This document shows, piece after piece, positions 14,521 to 62,100 of a stretch of DNA of 64,000 nucleotides (positions are counted from its first letter, which is position 1; every line of letters begins with the position of its first letter). The notes beneath the pieces are model-generated. The model saw only the letters and a list, made by a program, of their open reading frames with translations, did not search any database and was not told the origin of the DNA. A program made the translations under genes and the position numbers. The stretch is taken from the NCBI RefSeq assembly GCF_053078305.1, contig NZ_CP166879.1, one strand, 5' to 3'.

Positions 14521-14542
14521 TACCTGACGAAAAATAGAAAGC

Positions 14543-15634: not shown

Positions 15635-16048
<414 letters not shown>

Positions 16049-16356
16049 TTATTCAGCCTCCTGTCTGGGTCAGCCGAATCCCGGGGAGGCAAGGAACGTG
16101 TTAAAGGTCGGCTGAAAAATGACGCGTTATAGTACTGACATACCCCGCTAAACTCAAGGCCAGCCGACAAATAAATCTCATCTTTCACCAAAGTGGACTA
16201 ACACGCTGATTTGAAGTTCATCACACTTCATCATGGTGTTTTTTTGAACAACTGCATCAGAAATGGTCACCATCAACTTCTTTATCATTGATTAAAATTA
16301 AATCAGAAGTTCATCACAGAGGAGAGCACACAAAGTCAGCCGTCGAGGAGGTATCT

Positions 16357-19618: not shown

Positions 19619-19653
19619 TGAATGAAAGTTCAGTGATGCAGAAATAATGAATA

Positions 19654-34783: not shown

Positions 34784-35429
34784 TAATAACAAAACGCTAT
34801 CACTGACGGTAGAATACGTTGCCACTGCAACTCCTGGCGGAACAGTGGCAACGTATTAGGTTAAGTGCATTTCCGATCCGCTAATGAGATTTCGTTACCA
34901 ACAACTAATATCGTCACAGGAAATGCACGGATTATTTTTAACTTATCATTTACATACTTGTCCAGAGTGTAAGCGCACCGTGAAGGACGAGGGGTAAAAA
35001 TTAGTTTACAGAGAGAGTGACGTTCCAGGGCAACAACTCTTTCATGCGGTTGGCAGGCCAGGTGTTGATTACACTGATCACGTGGCGTAGCCACGTTTCC
35101 GGCTCGATTCCGTTAAGTTTTGCAGCTACCGATCAGGCTGTACATCACTGCCGCACTATCGCTCGTCATCTCAAAGTCCGGTCTCGTCAGCAGGAAGGTA
35201 TCATTCTCTCCCGCCATTTTTCCGGAAGCCCGGTCAGATAAGTCCCTTTGTCTATCGCTGACTCCTGGCTCATAACCCGGTTAGCAGAATGCAGGGTCAC
35301 CACCTCGCCACGACCGAATCCGGATAAGTCAATTGCACCTTCTCAATCGCCATTTTGTCACAATTAAGTTTGATAAAGCAGGTCACTGAGGTGTACTGGC
35401 AATAGCGGACACTACCATTTGTTCTTTTT

Positions 35430-41985: not shown

Positions 41986-42211
41986 CTGGCCACCCTGATT
42001 CCTTCCCGTAACAACTGACGCCAGACTTTACGCACATCGTATACGCACGGTATCTTTTTCTTCAGCCAGTCATCACGCTGCGCACGGGCATTGCGTTTAT
42101 CAGGATGATGTCGCTGTTGCTGACAGTGGTAATACGTTGACGGGGCAATATGCAGTTCACTGCATACCGGTCCGATCCCGTACTGCTCACGCGACTTATC
42201 CAGCAGTGGCA
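41986..42211 (-). pseudogene. IS629 OrfB, truncated after ~75 codons
   Basis: MPLLDK...HIAPSTYYHCQQQRHHPDKR matches IS629 OrfB N-terminus then runs into the terminal IR. Confidence 0.7.
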
Positions 42212-42538
42212 TTATTTTTTCCAGGGGCGGTCGAACTCCGCCTTCGCAAAATAAGTGGAAGCCTGGCGAAGGATATCGTTACTGCGGCTCAGTTCACGAT
42301 TTTCACGTTCCAGCTCTTTCAGACGCTGACGTTCAGTGGTGGTGAAACCACCATCACCGCCCCCAATATCCTGCTCATGCTGGAGTACCCAGACGTGCAG
42401 AGTCTCCGGTGTACAGCCAATCTTAGGGGCAATAGAACAAATTGCTGTCCATTGTGAGTCATATTCGCCCTGACTTTCCAGAACCATACGAACTGCCCGT
42501 TGACGGACTTCGGGGGAAAAACGTGTATTTTTAGTCAT
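42212..42538 (-). CDS. IS629 OrfA
   Basis: 108-aa ORF MTKNTRFSPEVRQRAVRMV... recognised as IS629/IS1203 OrfA. Confidence 0.85.
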   Translation of the reverse strand: MTKNTRFSPEVRQRAVRMVLESQGEYDSQWTAICSIAPKIGCTPETLHVWVLQHEQDIGGGDGGFTTTERQRLKELERENRELSRSNDILRQASTYFAKAEFDRPWKK

Positions 42539-44300: not shown

Positions 44301-47300
44301 TAGTTGTTATCTCCAAGCAGACTTTGACCACACAGGATTTGGTAGTTGGGTTCATCTACTGCAACCTGTTTACTAATAAATTCATGAACGTTTCCAAGTG
44401 CTGAATCATTATTGGTCTTTGACCACATACGCCTTGCTCCCAGAATCAATAACCTTTCTTGAGCTCGCGAAATAGCAACGTTTATTCGCGGCGCGTCGCG
44501 CAGGAAACCTTGTAGTTTGTTGGGATTATCGCGAACCAGACTGAGGATAATTATCTTGTTTTCCTGGCCCTGATATGAATCAACGGTATCGATCTTGATC
44601 AAACCACGTAACGATGCAGCCCATTCAGCCCGACTGATAGCATTGTCAATTTCCTCTTTTTGCTGACGATACATTGTGATTATACCAATAGGATATGGCT
44701 GTTCTGTGGTAATAGTTTGCTCAAGCTGTGCAATGCAGCCATCACTCGACAATGACTGCAAAGCCTCTAGCAGTAGCCGGACTTCTCGTTGATTATAGTA
44801 ACGACCATTACCCTTATGTTCTTCTGCACCTGCTTCATTAGGGCTCGAACTATCGATCCAAGTAACAGTTTTGTTCCAAGGGATTGGTAACTTGGAATAC
44901 CAATCTGGCGAGACTTTCCTCGATGAATGCAGTTTACCGATATCTTGAGCGTAAAAGCACTCCGATACTAACTCGCCAATTGGTTCTACCATTCGATATT
45001 GAGTATCGAGTGTTACGCCGCCTGTTGCTTTAAAAGCACGTTCAAAATCAGACTCATAAAAGATCCCTTTCCCGAGTTCTAATTTCTTAGAGGCTAACTT
45101 AAGATGCTGTTGATGATAGAATGGTGGCAATTGTTTATGATCCCCTACCAACAGCACCCGCTTGCCTGATTGCAGCGCTACCATCAATTCAGCAGCTTGT
45201 GCTCGGCCAGCCTCATCAACTATTACCCAATCAAAGCTGGACTCAGCTAGTTCTAGTCGACGATTCCCAACACCAACAAGAGTTCCACAAACCAATCGCT
45301 TACTTTTGAACATAAATCGATCAAATCCAGCCTCGCCGCCGCGTAATACATCCATCCACTCTTGGCTCATTTCCAATAGCTGCATAAAACGTTCAAGGTT
45401 CTCTGGATTGTTATAATTGTATTGTATGGCAACTTGCTCAGCCAACTGTCTTATCAAGGTTTCATCATAGACAAGAGTTTTCAGCAAGCTGTCATCGAAT
45501 ATTGAGTTAATAATTTCTTGTGTTCGCAGTTTAAGCTGATTGCTTTGTTCTAATAATTCAGCCAGTCGCTCTTGATGACTAATACTACTACTCTTTATTT
45601 GTTCTACTTTATCCAGCTCACGGCTATATTGGCCATATGTCACCATCAAGGGATTCAGCGTACGATGTAACTGACATAACTGTTGGACTAATAATGGGGC
45701 CATCCCTAGGCGCTTTCCTAGGGAGCTAACTCGCAGATCATATTCACGGTGAAATTTATGCTGAATCTGTCGCTGAAGAGCTTTAGTTGCAACACTTAGC
45801 ATACCCTCATCAATCATAAGTTCATTACCAATACGTACTGTATCCAGTTCCATTCCTTTCGTATGGCAGAGCTCTCGAGCCTTGATGGCTACATTATCAA
45901 CAGAGGCATGGGATTGCCCGACCAAAAGAATGTTATTCACACCGCAATGTTGATACAGATAGTGAATAAATTTTGAAATAAATGTTGTTTTACCTGTTCC
46001 AGGTGGTCCCTGCAGAACTCCAACTGGTCCAAACTCGACCAACTGTTGAAATGCCATTAGCTGCTGTTCATTAAAACGTTGTCCAGGCTGATCATAAAGT
46101 GCGCGTAATGTCTCCGCGGATGGCCGCGGTTGCATTTGCTGCATGCAGGGTTTCTGGTGGTAATCAAAATACTGTGGCAGATGCTGGATCTCTGCTTTGT
46201 TTTCAATTACCCGTTGAAGGGCTCTTTGACGCAACTCTCTTGATGATTTGTCACGGATCGATTCCAATTGTAGCTGGCTGCCGCTACTAATTCGCTTACG
46301 AGCAGCATCAAAATCAAAGCGAATAGCCAATAGACTCGGCGTAGTCTCACTTAGCTGCAATTCCCCTAATTGCACTGATTCACGCTTATCTTTAATATAA
46401 ACAATGATCTTATCATCAAGTTCAAAGCTGAGGTCAGCACCGGATTCCGTAGTATATGGGTAGAGTAAGCAACCACTCGGTGATTCCTGAAAGTCAGTAG
46501 AGTCGATGTTGACTATATCTCGTAGGTCTACTTCTGTATCAGATAATGCCTGCCATAACTCAATTGGGCTTGACTCACTACTATCGAAGTCATCTTCATC
46601 CATCTCTTGATTAGGATTAGCTCGCTCAATGATGGCATCAATTACTGGCTCGAGGTTAAACAGTAGTTCAATAAAAGTATTACGCTGATTAAGTGAGCCA
46701 CGTTGTAATGAAAGTTGAGTATTAATTTTAGCCTGGGAATATTTACCAGCCTTTATACTTTCTTCGATCGATAATCCTTTTTCATACACTATTCTATTAA
46801 TAGTGCGATTATCAGGATCTAAGTCTATCAATAGCCGCTCTCCTAGGCCAGTGATGTAACAACGCAATTCATGCGCAAAGCGTGGGTTAGATGACCAGTT
46901 ACATTGAAAATAATAGATCCCATCATTTTGTTCTAGAAGCTTCACTTCTTGCGGCCAATCATCTGTGCCCCAGCAAACAGGAATTACCTTATCCTGTGAC
47001 TCAGACGCCACAACTTGATTAATCTCAGCTTGTTCCGGTGCTCGAATTGACTGCAGCAAAGGATCGAGCGCGATAGGTATACCGTCAACGGTTTGTTTTG
47101 CGCGTTCTAGCTCAGCCTGCACCAGTACTGGCATATCTTCACTAAATAGCTCCTCCACCATACGATATACTGCAAAGCAATCTCGCCCAAAAGCATCAGT
47201 ACTTTCGGGATTCTCTGGCTGGTAGCGATTATCTGCAGTTAATTCATCACTGAATTCAAGCAATCCAATCAGAGTAATTACTGTCTGCTCCCCGACTTGT

Positions 47301-49258
47301 ACCAGCAGTTTCTCTGGGCAAAGATCTCCATGAGGTAACTGCTTTTCATGAAAAGCATGAATGGTGTTGATCAACTTTTCCGCAATTGTAAAACGTTGGG
47401 ATTGTACTAACACGTTCTCAGCAATAAACTGTGACCACGGTAGGCCATCCACATACTCGCTCACTACATACAAGCCGCCTTGTCCTAATAGTCCATAGGA
47501 CTGCACCTTAGGAGTTGGCAGATTTATATGCGTAAGCTTATCGATCCGTTGCTTAAAAGCGTGGATACGGCGGTTAACACCAGGTTGTTGAGGGGTCAAA
47601 ATAACACCATCCCACAATTTTACCTGCAGAGCTTTCCCACCTTGTTCACAGTGATAACTGATGCTGCCAGTCGTAGCAATAGCAGCAAGAGCAGAGTAAA
47701 CCATAGACAACTGTTCAGGAAGTGGAGGAAACTCAATTAACACACCAACGCTGTTCATCCCTTCGCGAAAGAATTTGTTTTGCTTTAATTCTTGATAAAT
47801 CTGGTTAGCTTCATCAAATTCTTGGCTATGTTCCTTAGTAGCTGCATTAAACTCATTGAGCATTATGTCCGCACGTGGAAAGCGTTTACTTGGCTCAAGG
47901 TTAAGAGCTTGCTCAAACCAGCTATTTAGAATACCGCTAAAAGGATCAGTTAATGGAGCTCTCCATTCAGGCATCTGTCCAGGAGTCAGTAATGATTCAC
48001 CTGCAAAACAAATACGATAAGCAATTACAGCCAACATGAATACATCTAGGCGATAGGGCTCAACTGCTTCTTCAAAAGCATCTTCGGGCAAAATATATGG
48101 AGCACTTTGCAATGTCGGACGCAATGACTCTAGGCTATTATGTCCCTCCAGTGAGGCTGCGCCAAAGCCAGTAACGACAATGCTCTTCTGATCCCCTGCG
48201 TACCATAGATTGTGCGGGTCAATATCACAATGACTGATACCCAAGCTATGTAATTCCGAGAATGGAGCTAATAATGCACGAACGCGATCAATACGCTCAG
48301 ATTTACTCCATCCGTCAGCTTCGCTATCTAGAATCTCATCTAATCGGCTAAAACTACGGCGTAACTCATACAGCTCACGGGCATCATCAGTTATATCCTC
48401 CTCGGATAGTTCCCTTACAGCACGCAACATATAATCCTGCATAGTTGCGCTGCCATGACGAACTAGGCGACCGACTCGAGTCTCACGCAGAGCTATCTCA
48501 GCCCACAATGTTTGCATTGCGTTTGCTACACCCAAGGCATCAAAGTTCCACTGCCGTAGCAGACCTCTGTGTTGACTATTGTCTTTGTGGGTAGCCCTGA
48601 ATTCGTTGTAGACCATGTGAGGGTGACTAAAGAATGGCTTATCGTTCGCAAGATAACCGCTTTCTTTTAGTGGCAAAGGCCTGACTTTTGGTCCTTCAAA
48701 GAAGGACTTAATTATAGGTAATGCCTCATCAGAATTTGGTCGAGGCTTTCCCCCTTCAAAAAGATGAAAAAAGTTAGTGTGTTGCACCAGCTTTTCGTAA
48801 TTTTTTGGGTTACCTATAGTCAAGAATTCATCACGGGTATGAACATAGCGCCTCTCACTTAATGGCAAGTTTTCAGGACCAGCTGTGCCACACAGCACTA
48901 CATGAGCCTCAACATGCAAAAAGTAACCCAGCTTACGAGATAACTCTTCCTGCAACAAATCTTTTAGTCGCAGTGCATGCTCACGCTTGATCTGATAGGG
49001 ACTTTTGCCTCGTGACTTACCATTTTGCAGCCACTTCCCCCCTTCAAATGTGATGTTACCATTCCACTCTTTAAGCTCGACTAATAGCAGACGGTCAGCA
49101 GTAATAATTAGCATATCGATTTCCATCGACCCTTGGCTATCAGTAACAACTAAGCCAGCATAGCCAAACCAACTATCTGGTAACTGCTTAACCATCATAT
49201 CAACTGTTTTGGTTTCGCTGCGGTGCAGGCCAGCACCACCTACTATCTGATACTTCAC
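44300..49258 (-). CDS. 1652-aa multidomain protein: N-terminal NERD-like nuclease domain, two protein-kinase-like domains, C-terminal SF1 (Upf1/DNA2-like) helicase
   Basis: NERD-like D...ELK region (aa ~45-65); kinase catalytic-loop-like HCDIDPHN (aa 343-350) and HGDLCPEK (aa 643-650); Walker A GPPGTGKTT (aa ~1084), Walker B VIVDEAG, SF1 motif TVDSYQGQE. Confidence 0.85.
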   Translation of the reverse strand: MKYQIVGGAGLHRSETKTVDMMVKQLPDSWFGYAGLVVTDSQGSMEIDMLIITADRLLLVELKEWNGNITFEGGKWLQNGKSRGKSPYQIKREHALRLKDLLQEELSRKLGYFLHVEAHVVLCGTAGPENLPLSERRYVHTRDEFLTIGNPKNYEKLVQHTNFFHLFEGGKPRPNSDEALPIIKSFFEGPKVRPLPLKESGYLANDKPFFSHPHMVYNEFRATHKDNSQHRGLLRQWNFDALGVANAMQTLWAEIALRETRVGRLVRHGSATMQDYMLRAVRELSEEDITDDARELYELRRSFSRLDEILDSEADGWSKSERIDRVRALLAPFSELHSLGISHCDIDPHNLWYAGDQKSIVVTGFGAASLEGHNSLESLRPTLQSAPYILPEDAFEEAVEPYRLDVFMLAVIAYRICFAGESLLTPGQMPEWRAPLTDPFSGILNSWFEQALNLEPSKRFPRADIMLNEFNAATKEHSQEFDEANQIYQELKQNKFFREGMNSVGVLIEFPPLPEQLSMVYSALAAIATTGSISYHCEQGGKALQVKLWDGVILTPQQPGVNRRIHAFKQRIDKLTHINLPTPKVQSYGLLGQGGLYVVSEYVDGLPWSQFIAENVLVQSQRFTIAEKLINTIHAFHEKQLPHGDLCPEKLLVQVGEQTVITLIGLLEFSDELTADNRYQPENPESTDAFGRDCFAVYRMVEELFSEDMPVLVQAELERAKQTVDGIPIALDPLLQSIRAPEQAEINQVVASESQDKVIPVCWGTDDWPQEVKLLEQNDGIYYFQCNWSSNPRFAHELRCYITGLGERLLIDLDPDNRTINRIVYEKGLSIEESIKAGKYSQAKINTQLSLQRGSLNQRNTFIELLFNLEPVIDAIIERANPNQEMDEDDFDSSESSPIELWQALSDTEVDLRDIVNIDSTDFQESPSGCLLYPYTTESGADLSFELDDKIIVYIKDKRESVQLGELQLSETTPSLLAIRFDFDAARKRISSGSQLQLESIRDKSSRELRQRALQRVIENKAEIQHLPQYFDYHQKPCMQQMQPRPSAETLRALYDQPGQRFNEQQLMAFQQLVEFGPVGVLQGPPGTGKTTFISKFIHYLYQHCGVNNILLVGQSHASVDNVAIKARELCHTKGMELDTVRIGNELMIDEGMLSVATKALQRQIQHKFHREYDLRVSSLGKRLGMAPLLVQQLCQLHRTLNPLMVTYGQYSRELDKVEQIKSSSISHQERLAELLEQSNQLKLRTQEIINSIFDDSLLKTLVYDETLIRQLAEQVAIQYNYNNPENLERFMQLLEMSQEWMDVLRGGEAGFDRFMFKSKRLVCGTLVGVGNRRLELAESSFDWVIVDEAGRAQAAELMVALQSGKRVLLVGDHKQLPPFYHQQHLKLASKKLELGKGIFYESDFERAFKATGGVTLDTQYRMVEPIGELVSECFYAQDIGKLHSSRKVSPDWYSKLPIPWNKTVTWIDSSSPNEAGAEEHKGNGRYYNQREVRLLLEALQSLSSDGCIAQLEQTITTEQPYPIGIITMYRQQKEEIDNAISRAEWAASLRGLIKIDTVDSYQGQENKIIILSLVRDNPNKLQGFLRDAPRINVAISRAQERLLILGARRMWSKTNNDSALGNVHEFISKQVAVDEPNYQILCGQSLLGDNN

Positions 49259-49468
49259 GTTTTCTCCTGCACCACTAAATTTTTGTTGGTGGTAGTCCAG
49301 TAAAAATGGATGTAGTTATCTAAGACAGCGCATAGATTGTGCCTGCCTAACCCTAAAAAGTGTAATTATGAAAAGTAACGCTAGAAATTCTATACCGTTC
49401 GCAAAGAGAACACTTTTCAAAGATATATCATCATCTTGAACATGTCACTATAATGGTGAATCCATAAG

Positions 49469-49630
49469 ATGCGAACACCACATCTTGTGCCACTCAGCAA
49501 ACAGGCTGTAGCCATACTGATAAAACTTCAGACATGGGCAGTTGAAAATGGTCTGGTCTTTACGGGAGCACATGACCCGCGTAAACCAATCAGCGAAAAC
49601 ACCGTAAATAAGGCCCTTAGGTGCCCTTGA
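49469..49630 (+). pseudogene. Phage-type integrase fragment (internal ~53 codons only)
   Basis: MRTPHLVPLSKQAVAILIKLQ...GLVFTGAHDPRKPISENTVNKALR resembles the central region of P4-type integrases (compare intact int at 18437). Confidence 0.5.
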
Positions 49631-49725
49631 ACCACTATATCCAGACAGCCGTTGAGCTTAAGTTAACGTTACCGAGTGACGTTGATATTCCCTCGGTGAG
49701 AGATAACCAAGGCACCATGAGGATG

Positions 49726-50353
49726 CTATTCGTTATAGTGTTCGAACGCCTCCGCAAGGTTTTTTACTGCCGTTAACACGTCCGGTTTAGGTATGATACT
49801 GATGTAATCGCTCTTCATCGTTTTCACGAACCGTTCTCTCATTCCATTACTCTGAGGGCTACTGACTGCCGTCGTGCAGAGCTCCAGATTCAACTCTCTG
49901 GCGAACTGCCGTGTTTCATGAGTTGTATAAGCCGAACCGTTATCGGTCAGCCACTGGATGGGCCATCCCGGTCTATCGCCAAAGCGTTTTTCTATCGCTC
50001 CTGACATGACATCCTGCACCGTTGCTTTGCCATAACCTCCCGTGCTTGCGGCCCAGTCTATGGATTCAAGATCGCAACAGTCCAGTGCGAACGTGACACG
50101 CAGTTTTTCGTCATCATCACAACCGAACTCAAAGCCATCGGCACACCAGCGCGGGTCGCTTTCCTTCACCGATATTCGGGCCTTTATGTTCCCTCTGCGG
50201 TCGTGAAGGTTTGTCATGTAATAACAACAGGTTATTCTCGCTCATTATTCGATAAACGCGATTTGCATTCACGAACTGCAGTCCTTCGTTAAGACTGCCG
50301 TCTGAGAATAGCCCAGACACGACGATAGCCATCGAATCGCTGAACAGCGTCAT
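49726..50353 (-). pseudogene. IS2-like (IS3 family) transposase OrfB remnant, frameshifted
   Basis: ORFs 49726-50217 and 50129-50353 together resemble IS2 InsD (NANRVYRIM..., [34 protein letters not shown]) in two frames. Confidence 0.6.
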
Positions 50354-50459
50354 TCGGCAGGCGATAAAGAAGGTGTCGTTACGGGGAAGTCATCTTCACA
50401 GAGATTTTCAGTCAGTTAGCATTACCGACATTCATTCACCAACTTACCGGAGATAATCA

Positions 50460-50789
50460 ATGTCAAAACCCCGATGGACCATTGAACAGAAAAGGCAGCA
50501 CGTTGCTGCCTGGCGCGCCAGTGGTCTTACACGTCAGCAATACTGTGAACTCAACGATATTCCCTTCACATCACTTCGCGAATGGCCGCAGGATGTCGCA
50601 AAAGCTGAACGCCGGGCAAATGAACCGACCGTTCTTCCCGTTCATATTGCGCCACCACTGCATGCTGATGTACCACAGCCCGTCACGAATGAGCCAGTCA
50701 CGCTCTTCCTTCCCGGCGGAGTACGGATGTGCTGTCAGCCGTCACAACTTACCGATGTCTTCAGGGCGCTCAAATATGCTCAGTCCTGA
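50460..50789 (+). CDS. IS66-family TnpA (orf1) of outer element
   Basis: 109-aa ORF followed by overlapping tnpB and tnpC in the canonical IS66 order. Confidence 0.7.
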   Translation: MSKPRWTIEQKRQHVAAWRASGLTRQQYCELNDIPFTSLREWPQDVAKAERRANEPTVLPVHIAPPLHADVPQPVTNEPVTLFLPGGVRMCCQPSQLTDVFRALKYAQS

Positions 50790-51168
50790 TAATGTCTTCA
50801 TCGCGATTAAACCTGTTGACATGCGCCGGGGCATCGACACACTGACGCAGTATATACAGGATGAACTCCGGTCGACATGGCATGAGGGAGCCGCCTTCGT
50901 CTTTGTTAACAAAGTCCGTTCGCGTATCAAAGTTCTCCGGTGGGATAAACACGGGGTGTGGTTGTGTACCCGCCGTCTGCACAAAGGCAGCTTCCGCTGG
51001 CCACGTGCAAATGATGCTGCCTGGCACCTCACTCCCGACGAGTTTAACTGGCTGATTGCCGGTGTTGACTGGCAGCAGGTTAAGGGACATGACCTGACGA
51101 AATGGGGCTGGCAGAATGAACCTGAACTGCGCCCTGAAAACACGCAAAATACACTGCTAACTCAGTGA
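50776..51168 (+). CDS. IS66-family TnpB (orf2) of outer element
   Basis: ORF 50482-51168; start set at MLSPDNVFIAIKPVDMRRG, paralogous to the TnpB at 52940-53290. Confidence 0.7.
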   Translation: MLSPDNVFIAIKPVDMRRGIDTLTQYIQDELRSTWHEGAAFVFVNKVRSRIKVLRWDKHGVWLCTRRLHKGSFRWPRANDAAWHLTPDEFNWLIAGVDWQQVKGHDLTKWGWQNEPELRPENTQNTLLTQ

Positions 51169-51174
51169 AAAATA

Positions 51175-51265
51175 ATGAATATCCGTATCCGGAGTGGTAT
51201 ACTCCCCTGTATGGATATCTCCGCTCTCAACACCACGAATGACATCGAAAAACTGCGTGCTATGG
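51175..51265 (+). pseudogene. IS66-family tnpC of outer element, 5' part (interrupted by nested IS66 insertion)
   Basis: ATG at 51175; reading frame continues exactly across the insertion into 53807-55320 when one copy of the 8-bp duplication is removed. Confidence 0.7.
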
Positions 51266-51295
51266 GTAAGCGTCAACGGAGCACCGTATTGACGC

Positions 51296-52909
51296 TTATT
51301 TATTGGTGAGTACTACGTTCCATGGCAGGAGTTCATCAACTCGGTTGGAAGGCCATTCTGGCAGTACGCTCAGGATATGGCGCAGATACGCTTCCGGATC
51401 GATACCGTTCAGACGGCAGGTGCCGATCAGCCCGTACAACAGTGCTCCACGCTCGCCGCCGTGATCGCTGCCAAAGAACATAAAGTTTTTCTTTCCGAGA
51501 CAGACTGCACGAAGCGCTCTTTCCGCAGCATTATTATCCGCCTCCGCCAGACCGTCATCACTGTAATAACAGAGGGCATCCCACTGATTCAGTACATAGC
51601 TGAACGCTTCGCCCAGTCTGGATTTTTTCGACAGCGTACCATTCTTCTCCACCATCCATTCATGCAGTGACGTCAGTAACACTTTGCTTCGCTGCTGCCT
51701 GACGGCAAGACGCTCTGACTCCGGTAATCCCCGTATTTCATCCTCGATGGCGTACAGTTCACTGATTCGCTTCAGGGCTTCTTCTGCCGTCGCACTTTTG
51801 CTGCTGATGTATACATCGTGGATTTTTCGCCGGGCATGGGCCCAGCACGCAACTTCTGTCAGTGCACCACCTTCACGTTCTGCACTGAACAGCCGATCGT
51901 AACCGCTGAACGCATCCGCCTGCAGGATACCCCGGAAGGGACGAAGGTGTTGTACCGGATGTTTTCCCTGCCTGTCTGGTGAGTAGGCGAACCAGACCGC
52001 CGGTGGCTCTGATGAGCCCGCATTCCGGTCATCCCGGACATACGTCCAGATGCGTCCTGTTTTTGCCTTTTTTCTGCCCGCTGCCAGCACTTTTACTGGT
52101 GTGTCGTCAGTGTGAACCTTGCGGGTGTTCATCACGTAACGGTACAGGGTATCATTCAGCAGAGTCATTAACTGACAACATGCGTCAACCCAGTTGGAGA
52201 GTAATGCCCGGCTCAGTTCGATGCCCTGGCGGGCAAAGATTTCACTCTGACGATACAGTGGCAGGTGTTCGCAGTATTTTCCCGTTAACACGCGGGCAAG
52301 TAATCCGGAGCCCGCGATGCCGCGCTCTATCGGGCGGGACGGCGCTGGCGCTTCAACTATACAGTCACATTTTGTACAGGCTTTTTTTACCCGAACAGTG
52401 CGGATCACTTTCAGGGCGCTACTCACCAGTTCCAGCTGCTCAGCACTGACTTCCCCCAGATAATCCAGCTCACTGCCACACTCCGGGCAACAACTTTCTT
52501 CAGGCTCCAGACGGTGTATTTCACGGGGAAGATGTGCCGGTAACGGACGACGATGACGTGACTGTCGCAACTGGCGGGGAACCTGCGGGTCATCCTCACG
52601 CCCACTGTAACGATCGCTTTCCTGTTCGCGTTGTTTCAGTTGGGCCTCAGCCTGTTCAACCTCACGCTGCAGTTTTTCAGAACGGGTACCGAACAACATC
52701 CGGCGCAGTTTTTCTATCTGGGCCCTCAGATGTTCTATTTCCCGCTCCTCCTCTTCGATCTTTTCCTCGGCACGTGCCAGTGCAGAGCGCAGGAAGGCCT
52801 CCGTCTCTTCAACCAGACTCAGTTGCTGATCTTTCTGACGGAGGGCTTCAGCCTGCTCAGAGAGCAGCCTTTCCAGCTCAGTGATACGAATGAGGTATTT
52901 CCGACTCAT
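51296..52909 (-). CDS. IS66-family transposase TnpC
   Basis: 537-aa ORF with N-terminal coiled-coil, CPECG zinc-finger-like motif and DDE region. Confidence 0.9.
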   Translation of the reverse strand: MSRKYLIRITELERLLSEQAEALRQKDQQLSLVEETEAFLRSALARAEEKIEEEEREIEHLRAQIEKLRRMLFGTRSEKLQREVEQAEAQLKQREQESDRYSGREDDPQVPRQLRQSRHRRPLPAHLPREIHRLEPEESCCPECGSELDYLGEVSAEQLELVSSALKVIRTVRVKKACTKCDCIVEAPAPSRPIERGIAGSGLLARVLTGKYCEHLPLYRQSEIFARQGIELSRALLSNWVDACCQLMTLLNDTLYRYVMNTRKVHTDDTPVKVLAAGRKKAKTGRIWTYVRDDRNAGSSEPPAVWFAYSPDRQGKHPVQHLRPFRGILQADAFSGYDRLFSAEREGGALTEVACWAHARRKIHDVYISSKSATAEEALKRISELYAIEDEIRGLPESERLAVRQQRSKVLLTSLHEWMVEKNGTLSKKSRLGEAFSYVLNQWDALCYYSDDGLAEADNNAAERALRAVCLGKKNFMFFGSDHGGERGALLYGLIGTCRLNGIDPEAYLRHILSVLPEWPSNRVDELLPWNVVLTNK

Positions 52910-52939
52910 GACCGTTTTTATAATCCGGCCATGACATTT

Positions 52940-53290
52940 TTACAACATTGTCAGTGCATTAAGGCGGGATGTTTTGGGCTGACGCCAGTCCAGTTTATCG
53001 AGGAGCATTGCCAGCTGCGAGCGGGTAATGGATACCTTACCGTCACGCACCGCAGGCCAGATAAACTGGCCTTCCTCCAGACGTTTGGTGAACAGGCACA
53101 GACCATCAGCATCAGCCCACAGAATTTTAATCGTGTCACCCCGTCGGCCGCGAAAGATAAACAGGTGACCGGAGAAGGGGTTCTCATCCAGCACATGTTG
53201 TACCTGTTCTCCCAGACCGTTGAAGGATTTACGCATATCAGTAACGCCGGCAACCAGCCAGATTCGAGTGCCTGATGGGAGCGAGATCAT
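52940..53290 (-). CDS. IS66-family TnpB (orf2)
   Basis: 116-aa ORF MISLPSGTRIWLVAGVTDMRKSFNGL..., typical IS66 orf2. Confidence 0.88.
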   Translation of the reverse strand: MISLPSGTRIWLVAGVTDMRKSFNGLGEQVQHVLDENPFSGHLFIFRGRRGDTIKILWADADGLCLFTKRLEEGQFIWPAVRDGKVSITRSQLAMLLDKLDWRQPKTSRLNALTML

Positions 53291-53712
53291 CGTCCCCTCC
53301 CGGTCAGTTCACGGATCAACACCGTGAGCAGCTCTGGTGAAGGATTTTCCAGCGTCATGTTACCGTGGCGGAACTCAACTTTACAGGAACTGGCACTGAC
53401 TGTGCTTTGTGAAGGAGTGGATAAAAGCGGAGTAAGAGCCGCCACAGGCTCTTTCTGCTCATCAGGCGTTATCTCAACAGGTAATAATTCAACGCCAGCG
53501 CCAGAAGAGGTTGTTACCGGAAGACGCCGCGATATACGCCCTTCGTTCTGCCAGAGCCTGAGCCATTTGAACAGGAGGTTATCATTGATATCGTGTTCCC
53601 GGGCAATACGGGCAACAGAGGCTCCTGGTTGTGAAGCCAGTTTAACCATTTGAAGTTTAAACTCATTTGAAAATGATCTGCGGGGTTCTGAGGATAATAT
53701 TTTCTGTTCCAT
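53287..53712 (-). CDS. IS66-family TnpA (orf1)
   Basis: 141-aa ORF overlapping tnpB start by 4 nt. Confidence 0.85.
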   Translation of the reverse strand: MEQKILSSEPRRSFSNEFKLQMVKLASQPGASVARIAREHDINDNLLFKWLRLWQNEGRISRRLPVTTSSGAGVELLPVEITPDEQKEPVAALTPLLSTPSQSTVSASSCKVEFRHGNMTLENPSPELLTVLIRELTGRGR

Positions 53713-53798
53713 AACAGGTGTCCACTAGTTGAAAAGGTGGGCACCTACGTTACCAATACTGGCTTAATGGCTACATACGGCGGTCAGTTTACGCTTAC

Positions 53799-55320
53799 TG
53801 CTATGGCACTTACCATGGTACAAAAAGTCATGTCGGAGAATGCCGAAAAAGAGCGGGAATTACTGGAGAAAAGCCGGCGCATCCAGCTTCTGGAAGAAAT
53901 GCTGAAACTGGTTCGTCAACAGCGCTTCGGTAAAAAATGTGAAACGCTGGCTGGTATGCAACGCTCCCTGTTCGAAGAGGATGTTGATGTCGATATCGCC
54001 GCGCTTACCGCACATCTGGATAAACTGCTCCCGCAATCCCCTGAAGAAGACGAAAAAGCGTCCCGTTCACGCCCGATACGCAAACCCTTACCGGCTCATC
54101 TTCCACGGGTGGAAAAAATTATCCAGCCGGACACTGACCATTGCCCTGAATGTGACGAGCCGCTGCACTATATCCGTGATGCGGTGAGTGAAAAGCTGGA
54201 GTATATTCCCGTTCACTTCGTGGTGAACCGTTATGTCCGTCCGCAATACAGTTGTCCCTGTTGCCAGAAGGTGTTCAGCGGTGAAATGCCGGCACATATC
54301 CTCCCGAAAAGTGCCGTTGAGCCATCAGTCATCGCACAGGTGATCATCAATAAATACGGTGACCACCTGCCTCTGTATCGCCAGCAGCACATTTTCTCCC
54401 GAATGGGGGTGGAGCTCCCCGTCAGTACAATGGCGGATAGGGTCGGTGTTGCTGGCGCTGCACTGGCCCCGCTGGCAAAATTGTTACGCCACGAGCTTCT
54501 GACACGGGATGTTATTCATGCCGATGAAACGTCCCTGAGGCTCCCTGATACCCGGAAAGGCGGTAAATCCTGCTCCGGCTGGCTGTGGGCTTACGTCAGC
54601 GGAGAAAGAAGCAGTCCGCCGGTCGTCTGTTTTGACTCGCAGACCGGACGGGCCCTCAGATATCCTGAGGCCTGGCTGCAGGGCTGGTGTGGCGGTACGC
54701 TGGTGAGTGACGGATACAGCGTGTACAAATCTCTGGCGGATAATGACCCCGGTATTACATCTGCCTGTTGCTGGAGCCACGCAAGGCGCGGTTTCGCAAA
54801 TCTGTATAAGGCCAGCAGGGAGCCCCGTGCAGCCATGGCGCTGAGAAAAATCGCGGGTCTTTATCGCATTGAGAAGTTCATCCGTGAACGTCCTGTGGAA
54901 AAAATACGGCAATGGCGACAACGGTATTCCCGGCCGATAGTGAATGACCTGTTTGCCTGGCCTGAAGAGCAGGAGCCGTGCTGTCCGCCCGACGGACCAC
55001 TAAACAAAGCGATTAATTATATCCTGAACCGGCGCGATGAACTGAGCTGCTTCCTGAGTGACGGAGCCGTGCCCCTGGACAACAATATCTGCGAGCGTGC
55101 TATCCGCCCGGTCGTTATGGGACGAAAGGCCTGGTTGTTCGCCGGTTCACTGATGGCCGGAAACCGCGCGGCACAGATAATGAGCCTTCTGGAAACGGCA
55201 AAACGTAATGGTCTGGAGCCACATGCCTGGCTGACAGACGTCCTGGCGCGTCTGCCGGAATGGCCAGAGGAGCGACTGGCAGAGTTGCTGCCTCTTGAGG
55301 GATTTACCTTCTCCGGGTGA
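53799..55320 (+). pseudogene. IS66-family tnpC of outer element, 3' part
   Basis: ORF 53737-55320 in frame with 51175-51265 across the nested insertion; CPECDEP zinc-finger-like motif and DDE region. Confidence 0.75.
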
Positions 55321-55921
55321 GTGATACCTGCCGTCAGGTGTTCGTGCACCGGGCCATAACCTGCAGTCGGGAGTTGAACTCCTGACGACAGGAAATGAGC
55401 CAGACCAGCAACCACACGGGCTGACAGCGAATAAGAACCTGAATCAGCCCGGAGTCATTCCCGGGTCAGTACATCATCACCTGCCATTAATCCCCGAGTC
55501 AGTACTTCGCGGCCTGACGCGATCACCCTACTCAGTACTTCAGAGCCCGCCTCCGGTACCTGCCTGGCGATCGCCCCTGTGCAACAAAATAAATCAACCG
55601 TTATCAGACCACGATCGTTCGTATGCGCCGCCGATGACGCGCGCCTGAAAAACGCGTCAATATGAGTTCCCCGGAAGCTTACGGAAAAGTTGAAGATCAT
55701 GCTGTTTATTTTCATCTGTATTGTCACCAGTCAGCATATGCCCCGGTCCCCGATTAGGTTGCGTGTTTTCATGGAAGGAGAGCGCCCAATAACCTCTATT
55801 GAGATTGGAGTTACTCACCGATCACTTCCACAGTAATACGCACATTACCATCATTCCTGATGGCATTGACCAGGAACATAACTACCAATAAAAATTCCCC
55901 AAAGTTGAAGTTACCGTAAGC

Positions 55922-56197
55922 CTATTTTTTATCTTCTTTTCTTTCTTGTAACTTTGCTTTTATCCAAATACCAATCCCTGCTAACATACCAGCCCCTCCC
56001 CCCACCTTTAAAGAATAAATAATATCTGCCCTCCAATCAAAAAATAAAACTTGAGTTTTAGAAAAAACTATCAGTCTACCAAGAATAGTACCTAACATTG
56101 CCATAAAAAAGATGCAAGCTATGCAGCGCATTATTAGTATGATAAGAATGTAAAAGTTGACACTCTTATTTATTTTTAATGGATTTATCAGCTTCAT
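55922..56197 (-). CDS. cdiI: Putative CdiI immunity protein (small polytopic membrane protein)
   Basis: 91-aa hydrophobic ORF immediately downstream of and overlapping the cdiA 3' end; start may be an internal Met. Confidence 0.6.
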   Translation of the reverse strand: MKLINPLKINKSVNFYILIILIMRCIACIFFMAMLGTILGRLIVFSKTQVLFFDWRADIIYSLKVGGGAGMLAGIGIWIKAKLQERKEDKK

Positions 56198-59100
56198 CTA
56201 GTGTTCCTTTTGTTACATTCCCGATAGCTTCACCAGTAATTGTTCCCCCAATATTACCAATAATATCAGATGTTCCCTCTTTGACAGTAGAGCCCATTGA
56301 CCCCGAGATGACTTTCCCTATACCGCCACCAAATACTGAACCTAATCCTGTCCCAATAACTGAATTTGTCGGATCCTCGCCTTTAATACTACTACCAATT
56401 GCCGCGCCGCTCATGTTGATAGGAGTTGAGACGATGATGCCTTTACCGGTTGTAGCTGCAGCTGTCACCCCAGCCATTATCGCATCCACATAACTGAAAG
56501 GACCTTTTCCAGCAAGCTGAGCAGCTGAGTTTACGCTGATACCAATTGCTGCATTAGTCGCCATACCTTTCACTGTTAACCCCAGTACGCTTCCTCCAAA
56601 CAACAAAGGAGCATCACCAATACTTGCATTAGATTTATGATACCCCCAGGTATTCATAATGCTTTGAGCCTTTGCCATTGCTTCAGTATCAGGGTTACGT
56701 TTTATATAGTCCTGTCCTGACAGTAACCCGGTAACAAGCTCCTGTGCCACCGCTGTACCGTACTCCTTTTCCATTTCTGAAGCATATACACGCAAGTAAG
56801 CTGCCAGTTCAGCACGTTCTGCGCTGTTTAATTGTGAAGGATCTTTATTAAATTTGGATACCAGAGCATCACTACGTTTATCTGCATTTTCCAGCTTAAT
56901 CAGCTCATTAGCAGTGGCTAATGTCTTATCGCCGTTCCTGATTTTCTCAATGGCTTTATCCAGTTTGTCAGAAGATGTCGCTCCCAGAAAGTTATTCTCA
57001 ACAGTCGTCTTACCTGACTGTGCGCCGGCTACCGCTGAAGCCCCCGAGTTGCCCACCAGACCACCGGCCAGGCCGGCAGCAACCGTTGCCAGTGTCGAGA
57101 CCGTCTGCTTCTCTGTCTCGCTCAGTTCACTCACCGGCTTACCGTACATCTGTGTGGCTATCATTCCCACCACCTCGCCGGTGGCAGCCCCTGCGGCACC
57201 GGCAAGGGCATTATTTCCCTGTGCCACCGCCAGCGCGGCATTCACAACCGCATGGGCGGCCACACGCCCCGCACCGTCCGGGGTGTTATTTTTGATTATT
57301 TCTGCAATGTACGGCGCAGCACCACCTGCCAGGGCTGCACTCAGATTACCACCGGCCAGTCCCTGTACCGCTGCCGTTGCAGCCTGTATCGCCTGCTGGT
57401 ATTTGCCTCCCGTTCCAAAACCGGAGGCTGCCATACCGTTATTGTAGGCCCGCTGTGCCACATCCTGTTCCGTGAACGGTTTTCCTGCTGCCTCAAGCTC
57501 CGCACGGGCCTGATTCAGTGCTGCCGGGTCCCGCTTCGCTTTCTCACCGGCTATCTGTCCTTCCGTTCTGGCAATATCTGCCACCTGGTTACCAATCTCA
57601 CCAATGAGTTGCGCCTGCTGCAGTCGCTGCTGCTCTTTTTCCCTGTCAAAGATGGGGGACAGCGTCTGATTTGCATGTGCTGCGTCACGGTTCAGGTCTG
57701 CCACATCCTGTTTCTGGCTCTGCGTATCCCGGATGGTGATATTCCCGGCAGACACTGCCGACTGCGTGGTACTGTCCGCATGGCCTTCATGATTTGCACC
57801 GACCAGCAGATTGTTTGCCATGTTCCCCAGGAAATTTCCAGCAACACTGCCACCGGTACTGAGCCCTGTACTCTGATGTTCCGTTTTAAAGTCGGCCCGG
57901 TTTTCAATGTCACTGAAGCCCAGTGTGCCGGTATCCAGCCTGTTTTTATCTGCCGTTGCCGTGGACGCAATCACCGCACCGTTCAGTTGCGTATGCTGTC
58001 CGGTGGTGACATCAAACCCGCCCCTGCCGGCAAAAATCCCCGTCTGCTCCTGTACACTGTCGTAGTTACTGTGCATTTTATCCCGGCTGAGGTTCACACT
58101 CGCCGAACCGCTCATGGACCCGAAAATGAAGCTGCCTCCGGCGCTGGCATTCTGCTGCTTACTGTCATAACGGTCACTGTCCTGCTCACTGGTCAGTGTC
58201 AGATGACGACCGGCATCCACTTTCACCGTTTCACCGCCAGCCTGCGCGCCGGTAAGCGTGGTGTCCCGCCCGCTGATAATGGTCAGCCGGTTTCCCGCAT
58301 CCACCGTGGTTTCTGTATGGGTGGTACCGTTGCCTTTTTCACTGCCCTTACCCTGGTTTGCGCTGGCTGAAACACTGATACCCCAGCCTCCGGAGCCCAC
58401 ACCAACACCGACACCCACGCTGCCACCACTGGATGTGTTCTTTCCTTCCAGCTTTGACGTGTTTTCTGCTGATACCAGATTCACGTCACGGTTTGCCTGC
58501 AGCAGAACGTTGTTCCCGGCCTTTATCTGACTGCCCTGTATCGTCAGGTCACCATCCACGCCCTTCACGCCGGAGCCGGTGGCCTGAATACTGAGGTTAT
58601 TACCTGCGGTCAGTGTACTGCCCTTCGCCACCGTCTGCTCTGACTGCTGTTCTGATTTCGAAGACTGGCTGCCGTAAGAGAGGCTGATGCCCACCGTGTT
58701 ATTATTTCCGGCATCGGCTCCCTGCGCGTCTGCCAGTCGTCCGGCCTGCACGGCCTGAGCCCCCGAGAGCGCGGCCTTCACCCCCTGCAGGGCTTCAAGC
58801 CGGCTGTTTCCGGCAGATTTCGCCGCCTGTACGGTCTCCACCGTCGTATTCAGGGCGCTGCCCGCTGTGCCGGACAGGGCAAGCGTCAGACCGGAGGTTT
58901 TCTGCTCCACCGTATGTGTCTGTACATGCTGGTCTGTGGCGGCGGTAATGCTGACCTCCTTACCGCTGAGTGCCATGTCCCTGCCGGCAATCAGGTCAGA
59001 GCCGTTGACGGTCAACCGGTTACCTGCCTGAAGGGAAACATCACCGTGAACACTCCCCACCGTGCTGCCTTTCTGTGTGGTGTCTGTTGCGGTGTCCGTG

Positions 59101-62100
59101 ACTTTCAGACTCTGGCTGCCCATGCTGAATCCCACACCTCCGGAGCTCATCAGCCCAGATTTTTTCTCCTGTTTCAGGTGTGTTTCACGGTTGCTTTCTG
59201 TCAGCGTGCCGATACTCAGGTCATTTCCGGCAGCCAGGGAGACACGGTTATCCCCGGCCACACTGCTGCCCGTGACGTTCAGATTATGTCCGGCACTGAT
59301 ACTGACCGTATCCCCGTTCAGTTCACTGCCCGTCATGGTCCGGCGGTCAGTGACATCATGCGTGGTTGTGGTGGTTTTCGATAACATCCCGCTGCTGCCG
59401 GTCACTTTATGGTATTCATCCAGCGAGCGGGTATTCTGTGCACCGGTCAGCGTCACGTCATGACCTGCCATCAGGGCCAGGCCTTTCTGAGCTGACAGCG
59501 ATGCCGCCTGTGACGTCATATCCCGTCCGGCGGTCAGCGTGACATCACCGTTACCGGCAAGCGTGCTGCCCGTACTCTGTGTGACGCCCTGCGACAGACG
59601 ATTATTTTTATCCCAGATAATATTGTCCTGCGCGGAAGTGGTCACAGTGGAAAGCGTCATATCCCTGCCCGCACTGAGTTGCGTCAGGCTGTCCTTACCC
59701 TGATTCACCACCGTTGCAGCCGTCAGATTCATATCCCGTCCGGCCTGCAGCACCAGTCTTCCCTGGTCGTTCTGCACATACACGCCGGCCACACTGTCGA
59801 TACTGGTACGTTCAAAATGGTTCTGTCCGGCGTCGCGCTGTGCCGTACGGGTGGTGGTGGTCAGACTGATATCCCGTCCGGCCATCGCCAGCAGGCTGTC
59901 CGTGGCCTGCAGCAGCCCGCCGGTACTGTTAATATCCGTCCGGGCCGTCAGGCTGACATTTGCTCCCTGAATGGAGCCGGCCTGGTTGTGAATGTTTTCT
60001 GCACTGAGCTGCACGGTCTGCTTCCCGGCCAGTTTACCGCTGTTAAACAGGTCACCATCCAGCTTCATCACCATGTCCCTGCCGGCAATCAGCGCACCGG
60101 CGCTGTTCACATCACCGGGTTTTACACGGGCATACACCTGAGGTACCTGAACCGTCTGCGTGCTGCCGTCCGGCAGTGTCACCGTGGTGTTAACCAGCCA
60201 GACAATATCACCGGTCAGTAACGCCATCTGCTCAGCAGTCAGCGCCACACCTGGTGTCAGGTTGTATTGCTTACCAAATGCAATACCCGCATCCATTAAC
60301 GCCTTAAACTGCTCTTCATCATTACTGTATCCGTCCAGGTACCGTTGCCCGGTCAGAGCGACAACCTGCTCACGAATCAGACGCTGTTCGTAAAAACCAT
60401 CCCCCAGGCGTTTGAGCATGTTATCCCCGTTCTGAGAAAACGCCTTCTGCATGTAATCACTGCCCAGCCACGTCTTCTGGTTCGTAAAACGCGGGTCCGT
60501 TTCAACCAGATATGGCACATTCACTGCCGGGTTTGTTTTAAACAGGCTGCTGTCCGGCAGACGGGTATCCGGCCCGGCAACATGGATACTGCCCTGAGGT
60601 GCGCTGACTTCAAACTGCTGCCCCGGCAACAGAATGACCGGTTCACCGGCAGACACCACCGGGCGAAGCGGTATCCGGTCAGTAGCGGCTACTGCCGCAT
60701 CCACATTTCCGGCCTGTCCTGTCTGTACATCCGTTCCCTGTGGCTTCAGAGGAGAAAGCGTGACCTGGCTGCCCTGAATCTGTCCGTGGCTGGTGAGCTC
60801 TCCCGGCTTCAGCGTAATGCTCTGAATTACAGTGGGCGGAGTGTACTGAGAGGTTTTCTCCCCCTGCTTATCCTTTCCTTTTTTCCTGATACGGTAATAA
60901 TACGTGGATGTTCCTGAGTCCGTAACATGCCGCTCGCCACTGACACTGACATTTTCCACGCTTCCTGACGGAATGGTCAGCAGGCCGCCTGCAACAACCT
61001 GACTCTTATCATTAAGCAGTTTGTCTGCCACAATCGTCATGCCGGCACCGGACAGAATTTTTCCCGGGTCGGAGTCTTTTACCCGGGTTTCTTCCACGGT
61101 ACGGGTGTAATCATACTGCGTGAATTTATCTCTGGCGCCTTCCGGTGTATGCAGTTTTTTCAGTGAGTTACTGGAATCGTTATCCACATAAACGCCCGGT
61201 TCACCGGCGCTCCAGCGTTTATCTGAGCCGCTGAGCTGATACTCAGTCACCTTTTCCGTGGAAACCACCACGCGCTCCGTGGTGAAATGGTCATTGACGT
61301 TATTGATTTGTCCGGCACTCAGTACCAGATATCCGGCGGCTTCAATAGTGGCACTGTGATTATTCAGTACACCGGCTTTCCCCGTGGCGGCACCATTCGC
61401 ATCCAGCATGCCACCAGTATGCATATCACCTGCACTGTAAATCAGGCTGTGCGTCCGGTTATTCAGGGTCTGTACCCCTAAGTCCACACGCTCACGCCCG
61501 GCCAGCGTCGCCGCCACGCCATTTTCTTCCAGATTATTAAATGTGGCAGCGCTGACACCAACAGCATCGCCGTAGATTCGCCCGGTACCGGAATTCGTCA
61601 GGGTGTTCGCCTGAAGATGCGTATATTTCCCGTCAATCAGCCCACGGTTCAGCAGTGTGTCCGTCACGTTAAGCCAGGTCTGCCCGGCACTGATTTCACC
61701 TTTCTCTGTGTTTTCAAGGCGGATGCTGTTCAGGTCAAGCCGGCTGCCTGCCAGCAGGCTGCCGGTATTAGAGACATCGCCATTAACGGAAAGCGTAAGG
61801 TTTCCGTTCGCAATAGTCTGACCACTGTTGCTGAACGTTGTGTTACTTTTCAGCGTCATATCGCCCAGCGAAAGCAGTTTCCCGTCACCACCGAGCTGAC
61901 CGGCATCCACAGATACTGACTGCCCGGCCTTAACCACGCCGTCACGGTTCGAAAACGCCAGCTGACGGCCACTGACAGACAATGTCGCGCCGGAAGAGAG
62001 GACGCCGTCATTATTACTGAGCGTCCTGTCTGCCATAACCGTAAGCGCCCTGTCTGCCAGAATACTGCCCTCCTGGTTATCAAGGTCCTGCGTCGTGATG

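Follow-up and report, generated by a model that had tools for sequence, protein, structure and literature searches.

IS679 is the functionally characterised prototype of the IS66 family of insertion sequences (ISs), with three open reading frames (ORFs), of which tnpA and tnpB overlap, between terminal inverted repeats (IRs) of ~25 bp. Its transposition reportedly generates 8-bp target duplications and is said to require all three ORFs. Another member, IS682, has been described as a mobile element common in the pathogenicity islands of E. coli (PMC8386418). In ~507 of 5,426 E. coli genomes, a copy of IS682 interrupts tnpC of a related IS66 element within the EHEC tellurite-resistance (Ter)/urease island, and with >500 EHEC-type genomes carrying it, nests of this type are already known.

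Here we describe a nest in a window of 64,000 nucleotides from contig NZ_CP166879.1 (assembly GCF_053078305.1), in which a complete IS682 lies in the tnpC of an ISEc49-like element. The nest is a genuine, lineage-restricted and fairly recent transposition. It is a real and cleanly documented but ordinary event, and its significance is small and mostly a matter of bookkeeping.

Structure of the two elements

The nest sits in a genomic island laden with ISs, with a NERD/helicase gene on one side and a cdiA locus on the other. To its left lies a degraded IS3-family (rve) transposase remnant (49658-50330, minus strand; Pfam rve and rve_3 on the ORF 49726-50217), which in the identical GPEC1176 sequence is annotated as a frameshifted, partial DDE recombinase. 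A short remnant recognised by alignment (50310-50372) adjoins the left end of the outer element; the same ~60 bp abut an ISEc49-like element in strain ZYB39 and there represent the truncated end of an ISEc39 (IS256-family) gene.

The inner element occupies 2,533 bp of the minus strand (51266-53798) and encodes TnpA (141 aa, 53712-53287; Pfam HTH_Tnp_1, E 7.1e-15), TnpB (116 aa, 53290-52940; TnpB_IS66, E 7.8e-37) and the DDE transposase TnpC (537 aa, 52909-51296; LZ_Tnp_IS66, zf-IS66, DDE_Tnp_IS66 and DDE_Tnp_IS66_C, with E 2.8e-95 for DDE_Tnp_IS66, PF03050). All three ORFs are intact; the tnpB start and the tnpA stop overlap as ATGA (53287-53290), and 30 nt separate tnpB from tnpC. The 24-nt terminal IRs, one tnpC-proximal (51266-51289) and its partner tnpA-proximal (53775-53798), are imperfect (83% complementary), with GTAAGCGTCAACGGAGCACCGTAT and the reverse complement of ATACGGCGGTCAGTTTACGCTTAC matching at 20 of 24 positions, and both ends start with GTAAGCGT. 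The element accordingly has the marks of the IS66 family, namely an IS66-type DDE TnpC with overlapping tnpA and tnpB upstream, imperfect IRs of ~20-30 bp starting GTAAGCG, and an 8-bp target-site duplication. Over all 2,533 bp it is 99.8-99.9% identical to copies named ‘IS66-like element IS682’ by NCBI PGAP, with 3-4 nt differences from the Ter-island copies and none from those at L017, L019 and L024; judged by nucleotide identity and length against the PGAP-named copies, it is IS682. An initial annotation of this DNA had described a complete 2,533-bp minus-strand IS66-family element within the tnpC of a second one, and the coordinates, the three ORFs and their Pfam matches bear this out.

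Exact direct repeats of 8 bp (TGCTATGG) abut the IR ends of IS682 on both sides (51258-51265 and 53799-53806), and, with both positions set by the IRs, an exact 8/8 match has a probability of 4^-8 (~1.5e-5) by chance. IS682 is oriented antisense to the outer tnpC, which is interrupted after nucleotide 55, at codon 18/19. Excision in silico of IS682 and one repeat copy yields a single continuous tnpC ORF reading ...NDIEKLRAMALTMVQKVMSENAEK..., of 522 aa (from ATG 51211) or 534 aa (from ATG 51175), whose product contains all four IS66 TnpC Pfam domains (E 1.3e-88 for DDE_Tnp_IS66).

The outer element is on the plus strand and measures 5,310 bp with the insert and 2,769 bp without it (50373-55682); its ends were set by alignment to the ISEc49 copy in L003, and direct checks place the right end at 55682. 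The left IR (50373-50399, GTGTCGTTACGGGGAAGTCATCTTCAC) and the right IR (55656-55682, ...CCCCGGAAGCTTAC) match at 19 of 27 positions and start with GTGTCG and GTAAGC, respectively, both as in ISEc49 itself. By alignment, ISEc49 and the O157-type element have this same left-end sequence. The outer tnpA (50460-50789, 109 aa) and tnpB (50776-51168, 130 aa) are intact; the product of tnpA has no Pfam match and carries the RefSeq annotation IS66 accessory protein TnpA (WP_000042910.1) in GPEC1176, where the sequence is identical, while that of tnpB matches TnpB_IS66 (E 1e-34) and carries a tnpB annotation in GPEC1176. The tnpC gene is divided into a 5' stub of 18 codons plus 1 nt (51211-51265, with the alternative in-frame ATG at 51175), translating to MDISALNTTNDIEKLRAM, an N-terminus shared with annotated ISEc49 TnpC, and a 3' part (53807-55320) that holds codons 19-522 and all four TnpC domains. 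The order tnpA-tnpB-tnpC, the IS66 DDE transposase and the terminal IRs are those of the IS66 family. Inner and outer proteins share ~31% (TnpC) and ~30% (TnpB) aa identity, so the nest consists of IS682 in an ISEc49-like element, and not of two copies of one IS. Across the nest, Rfam at the gathering threshold gave no RNA family, and Tandem Repeats Finder reported no repeats in the outer element's long 3' untranslated portion.

End to end, the outer element is about 89.5-90% identical in nucleotides to annotated ‘IS66-like element ISEc49’ copies, with an overall figure of about 89.6%. Sliding identity and runs of informative sites delimit an 845-bp patch in its tnpC (54387-55231, plus strand) that is 98-100% like the EHEC Ter-island IS66-type element and 66-72% like ISEc49, and on this pattern of identity the outer element is best described as an ISEc49-derived recombinant. 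Its flanks, TAAAGAAG and GGAAAAGT, form no target-site duplication of its own, an absence that fits later recombination and is no argument against IS66-family membership. Being mosaic and without its own duplication, the outer element had therefore already recombined, and any mobility it had before the insertion is putative.

Empty and occupied sites and the age of the insertion

A natural empty site is present in E. coli strain 222, where tnpC is uninterrupted, the 8-mer occurs once, and window positions 49000-51265 and 53799-54386 both map to a single unbroken segment, where their alignments overlap by exactly 8 bp. The perfect duplication and the restoration of the tnpC frame, which the initial annotation had put forward from the window itself, are both confirmed by such natural sites. 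Among 5,426 complete E. coli genomes, the uninterrupted site is found in 323 (78 records at at least 99% identity), the left junction in one (GPEC1176, where IS682 is truncated) and the right junction in none. The possibility that every lineage with the outer element carries the insert, leaving no true empty site, is contradicted by strain 222 and by these 323 uninterrupted sites. In E. coli the outer element is mostly truncated, as in strain 222, or present as canonical ISEc49.

Assembly GCA_000736735.1 contains the full nest in a 9.6-kb stretch of 100% identity, and it also carries a second IS682 copy that is 100% identical to the insert. GPEC1176-type genomes share the left junction and have since lost 215 nt from the start of IS682 together with the flank on its right. 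Exact-match scans of metagenome contigs for the left and right junctions found nothing, and a plasmid search for the right junction gave no spanning match. Public genomes hold three states of the site (empty, full nest, and nest with a later deletion), and the nest, being structurally clean and datable, can serve to mark a narrow E. coli lineage.

The left junction common to GPEC1176-type genomes, which later lost part of IS682, shows that the insertion predates at least one rearrangement and a lineage split. It could be argued on this ground that the insertion is old and merely inherited, and that the clean duplication is uninformative on recency. We regard this as unlikely, since the flanking island is 99.9-100% identical between carriers, the insert has no differences from its sibling copy in the same assembly or from the L017 copy, no IS682 ORF has decayed, and empty sites outnumber occupied ones by >300 to 1 among complete genomes (323 versus 1). 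The ‘recent’ transposition of the initial annotation holds in this relative sense, for an event that is not private to one isolate.

The best overall explanation, and one in which we have high confidence, is that IS682 transposed into the tnpC of a resident ISEc49-like element in a narrow E. coli lineage, leaving an outer element that is probably immobile alone. An active IS682 copy would have used the ordinary DDE-transposase pathway to enter the ISEc49-like tnpC at codon 18/19, in the opposite orientation and inside the IS-laden island, and a staggered cut of the target followed by repair would have duplicated the 8 bp (TGCTATGG). The insert, still intact, is presumably mobile, and the outer element would retain both ends, tnpA and tnpB, with its transposase gene severed from them. 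The order of steps at this site is ISEc39 remnant, ISEc49-like insertion, recombination with a Ter-island-type element, IS682 insertion and, in relatives, IS682-adjacent deletion, which makes the nest one more example of the stepwise reshaping of IS-rich islands.

Target choice and the fate of the interrupted element

The exact IS682 transposase protein occurs in seven or more different genomic contexts, and four other IS682 sites have perfect 8-bp duplications (GCAGATTT, GAATCATA, CGTTATTC and GATCTAAA). That identical copies occupy several loci and are flanked by separate duplications suggests that IS682 is active, and the nest points to current activity in the lineage that carries it. Two loci involve IS682 itself as the target: in L021 the tnpA of an IS682 copy is interrupted by a 91%-identical relative (8-bp overlap) and adjoined by another IS682 copy, and in L010 an IS682-like end adjoins position 128 of an IS682 copy. 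A scan of contigs from one genome per species with a 30-nt IS682 end returned nine loci, including the L010 nest, most of them IS682 relatives sharing the IR or probably misbinned MAG contigs; none of the flanks of the nine matched ISEc49-type sequence.

The nest might not be random if the IS682 group prefers IS66-family targets (e.g. because the target DNA is transposase-bound or structured) as a form of IS competition, and the L021 and L010 cases would speak for this, as would the second, independent IS682 insertion in the related tnpC of the Ter island, at another position and in the same antisense orientation. We nevertheless consider it quite unlikely. The six duplicated 8-mers have no shared consensus, the other sampled contexts (a CP4-like island, a Mu-like prophage, a sulfatase locus, a tra region and a sugar-transporter locus) are not IS66 elements, and the sample is small and was ascertained from nests outward. 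Moreover, nested ISs are commonplace, an insertion into a dead IS of an island is neutral and preferentially kept, and local hopping clusters ISs. It is likewise very unlikely that the antisense insertions at two independent positions of ISEc49-group tnpC, together with those in IS682 tnpA (L021) and at its left end (L010), reflect a real bias of the IS682 group for IS66-family targets; if they did, nesting would be targeted interference between related ISs and not neutral accumulation.

The preferred reading, transposition of IS682 into a resident ISEc49-like tnpC, also bears on the fate of the outer element. The insertion puts 2.5 kb of antisense DNA between the outer tnpC and tnpA-tnpB with their promoter; with tnpC cut off from the ends, tnpA and tnpB, autonomous movement has probably been lost, and the outer element is very probably disabled. 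The initial annotation had stated its inactivation outright, of which the split tnpC and the 2.5-kb antisense insert are observed, while loss of function is a probable consequence, although an ORF with all domains survives downstream. This ORF (53737-55320, plus strand, 527 aa) is a hybrid that begins with a GTG inside the IS682 end and keeps every TnpC domain, and the 3' part of tnpC also has in-frame ATGs at 53815 and 53830. For annotation, the two tnpC pieces are to be treated as one gene, and the 527-aa ORF as a hybrid and not as a new transposase.

A hybrid TnpC, or a shortened one from either ATG, could conceivably act with tnpA and tnpB to move the 5.3-kb composite, given that the first 18 (or 30) codons alone are removed, upstream of all four Pfam domains, and that the outer element still has both IRs, tnpA and tnpB undamaged. 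Such continued activity is most improbable, however. Expression of the hybrid ORF from IS682 was considered and dropped, since the promoter scan found no sigma-70-like plus-strand site at the IS682 end reading into the ORF; the scanned region has a single plus-strand promoter-like site, at 50395-50422, which is the putative promoter of the outer element itself. Genes of the IS66 family are reportedly coupled in translation, and with tnpC 2.5 kb from tnpB across an antisense element this coupling would be broken. In addition, searches of complete genomes, metagenome contigs and plasmids yielded no further copy of the entire 5.3-kb composite. Lastly, an origin in faulty assembly or in homologous recombination, which might be entertained with IS copies being classic misassembly sites and the outer element itself recombinant, has a negligible probability and is already effectively refuted by the perfect 8-bp duplication exactly at the IR ends, by the identical left junction in an independent complete genome and the full nest in another assembly, and by the ~31% aa identity between inner and outer elements, which are too divergent for homologous recombination with each other.

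Comparison with known elements and nests

By analogy with IS679, the inserted IS682 would follow the prototype's plan, with three ORFs, the tnpB start over the tnpA stop and a short gap before tnpC; the IRs of ~25 bp and the 8-bp duplication known for IS679 have counterparts in the sequence here. The annotated IS682 copies have the same length (2,533 bp), ORFs (141/116/537 aa) and IRs as the inner element, which differs from a Ter-island copy by A277P and F436C in TnpC and by G58R and V90M in TnpA, and occupies a new insertion site relative to known copies.

ISEc49 (~2,766 bp, compared with 2,769 bp for the outer element) has the same ends and the same tnpA-tnpB-tnpC layout. Identity between the two is 97-100% across element coordinates 1-1460 and 94-99% across the final ~430 bp, whereas it is 66-72% in the central patch of ~850 bp, Ter-island-like in the outer element, and the TnpC proteins share 82% aa identity. 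The ISEc49 copy in L003 is flanked by its own 8-bp duplication (GCATTAAC), unlike the outer element.

The closest counterpart of the whole arrangement is the Ter-island nest (in O157:H7, O26, O103, O111, O145 and others), where IS682 is also inserted antisense in the tnpC of a three-gene IS66 element, with 8 bp perfectly duplicated; the 8-mer is GAGAAAGA in that nest and TGCTATGG in the present one. Over its first 1.7 kb, the element hosting the Ter-island nest is 78% identical in nucleotides to the outer element, and IS682 entered it at about element coordinate 1696, compared with 893 here. The Ter-island nest lies in a different island and is widespread, whereas the nest described here is rare.

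An IS682 insertion in an outer tnpC

The inner element (51266-53798, minus strand) lies between two copies of the direct repeat TGCTATGG (51258-51265 and 53799-53806), the perfect 8-bp duplication reported in the initial annotation; with two positions set by the IR ends, the chance of an 8/8 match is ~1.5e-5. The 2,533-bp insert has imperfect terminal inverted repeats (20/24 positions matching, both opening GTAAGCGT) and encodes, on its minus strand, three intact ORFs arranged in the usual IS66-family order: a 141-aa HTH_Tnp_1 protein (53712-53287; ORF and domain match), a 116-aa TnpB_IS66 protein (53290-52940), whose start codon shares the sequence ATGA with the preceding stop codon, and, after a gap of 30 nt, the 537-aa transposase TnpC (52909-51296; LZ_Tnp_IS66, zf-IS66, DDE_Tnp_IS66 with E 2.8e-95, and DDE_Tnp_IS66_C). 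With IS66 domains in all three ORFs and inverted repeats at both ends, the insert is the complete 2533-bp IS66-family element originally described. In-silico removal of the insert and one 8-mer copy joins the flanks into a single ORF reading ...NDIEKLRAMALTMVQKV..., which confirms restoration of the outer tnpC frame; the restored product of 522 aa (ATG 51211) or 534 aa (ATG 51175) contains the same four TnpC domains.

By sequence, the insert is assigned to IS682, as it is 99.8-99.9% identical over its full length to annotated E. coli copies of 'IS66-like element IS682'. It differs by four and three substitutions from two copies in the EHEC tellurite-resistance/urease (Ter) island (L001 and L002, respectively), which change two amino acids each in TnpC and TnpA and leave TnpB unaltered. 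Its exact TnpC protein occurs in many assemblies and at least seven distinct genomic contexts, copies without a single nucleotide difference are present at three loci (L017, L019 and L024), and perfect 8-bp duplications border IS682 at four other sites (GCAGATTT, GAATCATA, CGTTATTC and GATCTAAA). Judging from these identical copies, varied contexts and duplications, IS682 is probably active. The L019 copy (GCA_000736735.1, JPQG01000003.1, 3104-5652), 100% identical to that in the window, is located within a Mu-like prophage, beside a gene for a resolvase/invertase; the direct repeat shared by its flanks (ACGAAAAT and GAAAATTT) is just 6 bp long, not the usual 8 bp.

The mosaic outer element and its surroundings

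The outer element (plus strand) ends at 50373 and 55682, as defined by alignment to ISEc49 copies and by its own inverted repeats (19/27), and measures 2,769 bp without the insert. An ISEc49 copy in strain HSP425 has the same ends and is bordered by its own 8-bp duplication, GCATTAAC. Both tnpA (109 aa) and tnpB (130 aa; TnpB_IS66, E 1e-34) are intact ORFs. Alignments identify the element as a recombinant mosaic: ISEc49 is 94-100% identical to element coordinates 1-1460 and 2341-2769 but just 66-72% identical at 1474-2318 (window 54387-55231, ~845 bp, in tnpC), where an IS66-family element of the EHEC Ter island is 98-100% identical. The tnpC reading frame is unbroken despite this patch, and the restored TnpC is 82% identical to that of ISEc49, 87% to the Ter-island type and only 31% to that of IS682. 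The label 'IS66-in-IS66' thus holds at the family level, the partners being only distantly related. No target duplication flanks the outer element itself (TAAAGAAG at 50365-50372 versus GGAAAAGT at 55683-55690); this, together with the mosaic structure, points to earlier recombination.

The nest lies in an IS graveyard within a genomic island. The ~60-bp remnant on its left (about 50310-50372) recurs in strain ZYB39 directly beside an ISEc49-like element; there it is the terminal part of a truncated ISEc39 gene, and the element is likewise near a cdiI/cdiA locus. Further left are the decayed remains of an IS3-family gene and a fragment of a tyrosine recombinase, and a cdiA locus lies to the right of the outer element. 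The cdiA-type gene (55922-63986 region, minus strand; at least 2,606 aa) has haemagglutinin repeats and a glycine-rich C-terminus and runs toward the window end. Next comes a 91-aa hydrophobic ORF (55922-56197, minus strand) that overlaps the cdiA-type gene and is possibly its immunity gene; 240 bp downstream of this ORF is the end of the outer IS. Immediately left of the IS cluster, a 1,652-aa ORF (44300-49258, minus strand) with NERD, weak kinase-like and superfamily-1 helicase (AAA_11/AAA_12) domains, together with a 1.5-kb hypothetical gene upstream, may represent a defence-type gene pair. A third IS66-family trace (35010-35123, minus strand), a 38-aa fragment from a TnpC C-terminus with 60% identity to IS682 TnpC, adjoins an IS600 copy and lies downstream of iha.

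By collinearity with strain GPEC1176, the island starts at a tyrosine integrase directly after ulaE/ulaF (~18450-19630), and its cargo includes a two-component system, uhpC, an iron ABC transporter, iha and lutABC; the segment at ~11.4-14.5 kb (11410-14537) is unaligned with GPEC1176. Rfam matches in the window (an ALIL pseudoknot, the IS3-family frameshift element, at 42141-42257 on the minus strand inside a decayed transposase; ES239 sRNA, 2723-2845; RpsF leader, 16028-16112) all lie outside the nest, and none was found inside it.

Age and effect of the insertion

E. coli strain 222 provides a true empty site: window segments 49000-51265 and 53799-54386 map there onto a single continuous stretch (99.8-99.9% identity), and their alignments share exactly 8 bp. 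A 240-bp empty-site probe built in silico (counted at coverage ≥80%) matches 323 of 5,426 complete E. coli genomes, with 78 records at ≥99% identity. Among the same genomes, the left junction is spanned in just one, GPEC1176, while the right junction is spanned in no complete genome, plasmid record or metagenome contig. Assembly GCA_000736735.1 contains the full nest, both junctions included, at L024, which is 100% identical to window 47296-56909; the assembly is thus probably the window's source or very closely related to it. GPEC1176 (L005, from 24584) is identical to the window as far as 53583 and then diverges: its IS682 lacks the tnpA-proximal 215 nt, and all window DNA rightward is gone. 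In this derivative, also found at L018 and L025, DUF4222 and YagK/YfjJ genes replace the 3' part of outer tnpC and the cdi region, the outcome of a subsequent deletion or rearrangement that has one of its ends within IS682.

The best-supported reading is that IS682 inserted by the standard DDE-transposase route with an 8-bp staggered target cut, in a narrow lineage after the spread of the ISEc49-like element. The recent date first proposed is supported, in a relative sense, by an undiverged insert, empty sites far outnumbering occupied ones and an identical sibling copy; however, the insertion is older than the split from GPEC1176-type genomes, which then underwent the IS682-adjacent deletion.

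We infer the proposed inactivation of the outer element from its structure: tnpC is cut after nucleotide 55, and 2.5 kb of antisense DNA separates tnpB from the remainder of tnpC. The prototype IS679 reportedly needs all three ORFs, which are probably translationally coupled. However, a 527-aa ORF (53737-55320) starting inside the IS682 end keeps every TnpC domain; a promoter scan found no promoter-like site reading into it. With its two ends preserved, the outer element might conceivably be mobilised in trans by an intact ISEc49.

Comparison with known nests

Recurrent nests could hint at a targeting bias of IS682 toward IS66-family elements. At L021 (GCA_023518355.1, CP067426.1, 151-5644), a relative with 91% identity interrupts an IS682 tnpA at position 237, overlapping by 8 bp, and another full IS682 follows at position 421; at L010 (1-1279), an IS682-like end adjoins an IS682 copy at position 128 of the latter, the two being inversely oriented. 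Such a bias is nevertheless very improbable, given that the sample is small and ascertained from nests, that the six duplicated IS682 8-mers have nothing in common (no target consensus was seen), and that a simpler explanation is at hand, namely that insertions into mobile DNA which is already dead are retained.

The nest is real and was correctly read at the outset, and it is of practical use for marking a lineage and for keeping annotation tidy. IS682, ISEc49 and the IS66 family are already catalogued, and the event is of an ordinary, already-known kind: in the Ter/urease island of O157:H7, O26, O103, O111, O145 and other strains (about 507 of the 5,426 complete genomes), IS682 likewise lies antisense in the tnpC of a related IS66 element, at a different position and with the duplication GAGAAAGA.
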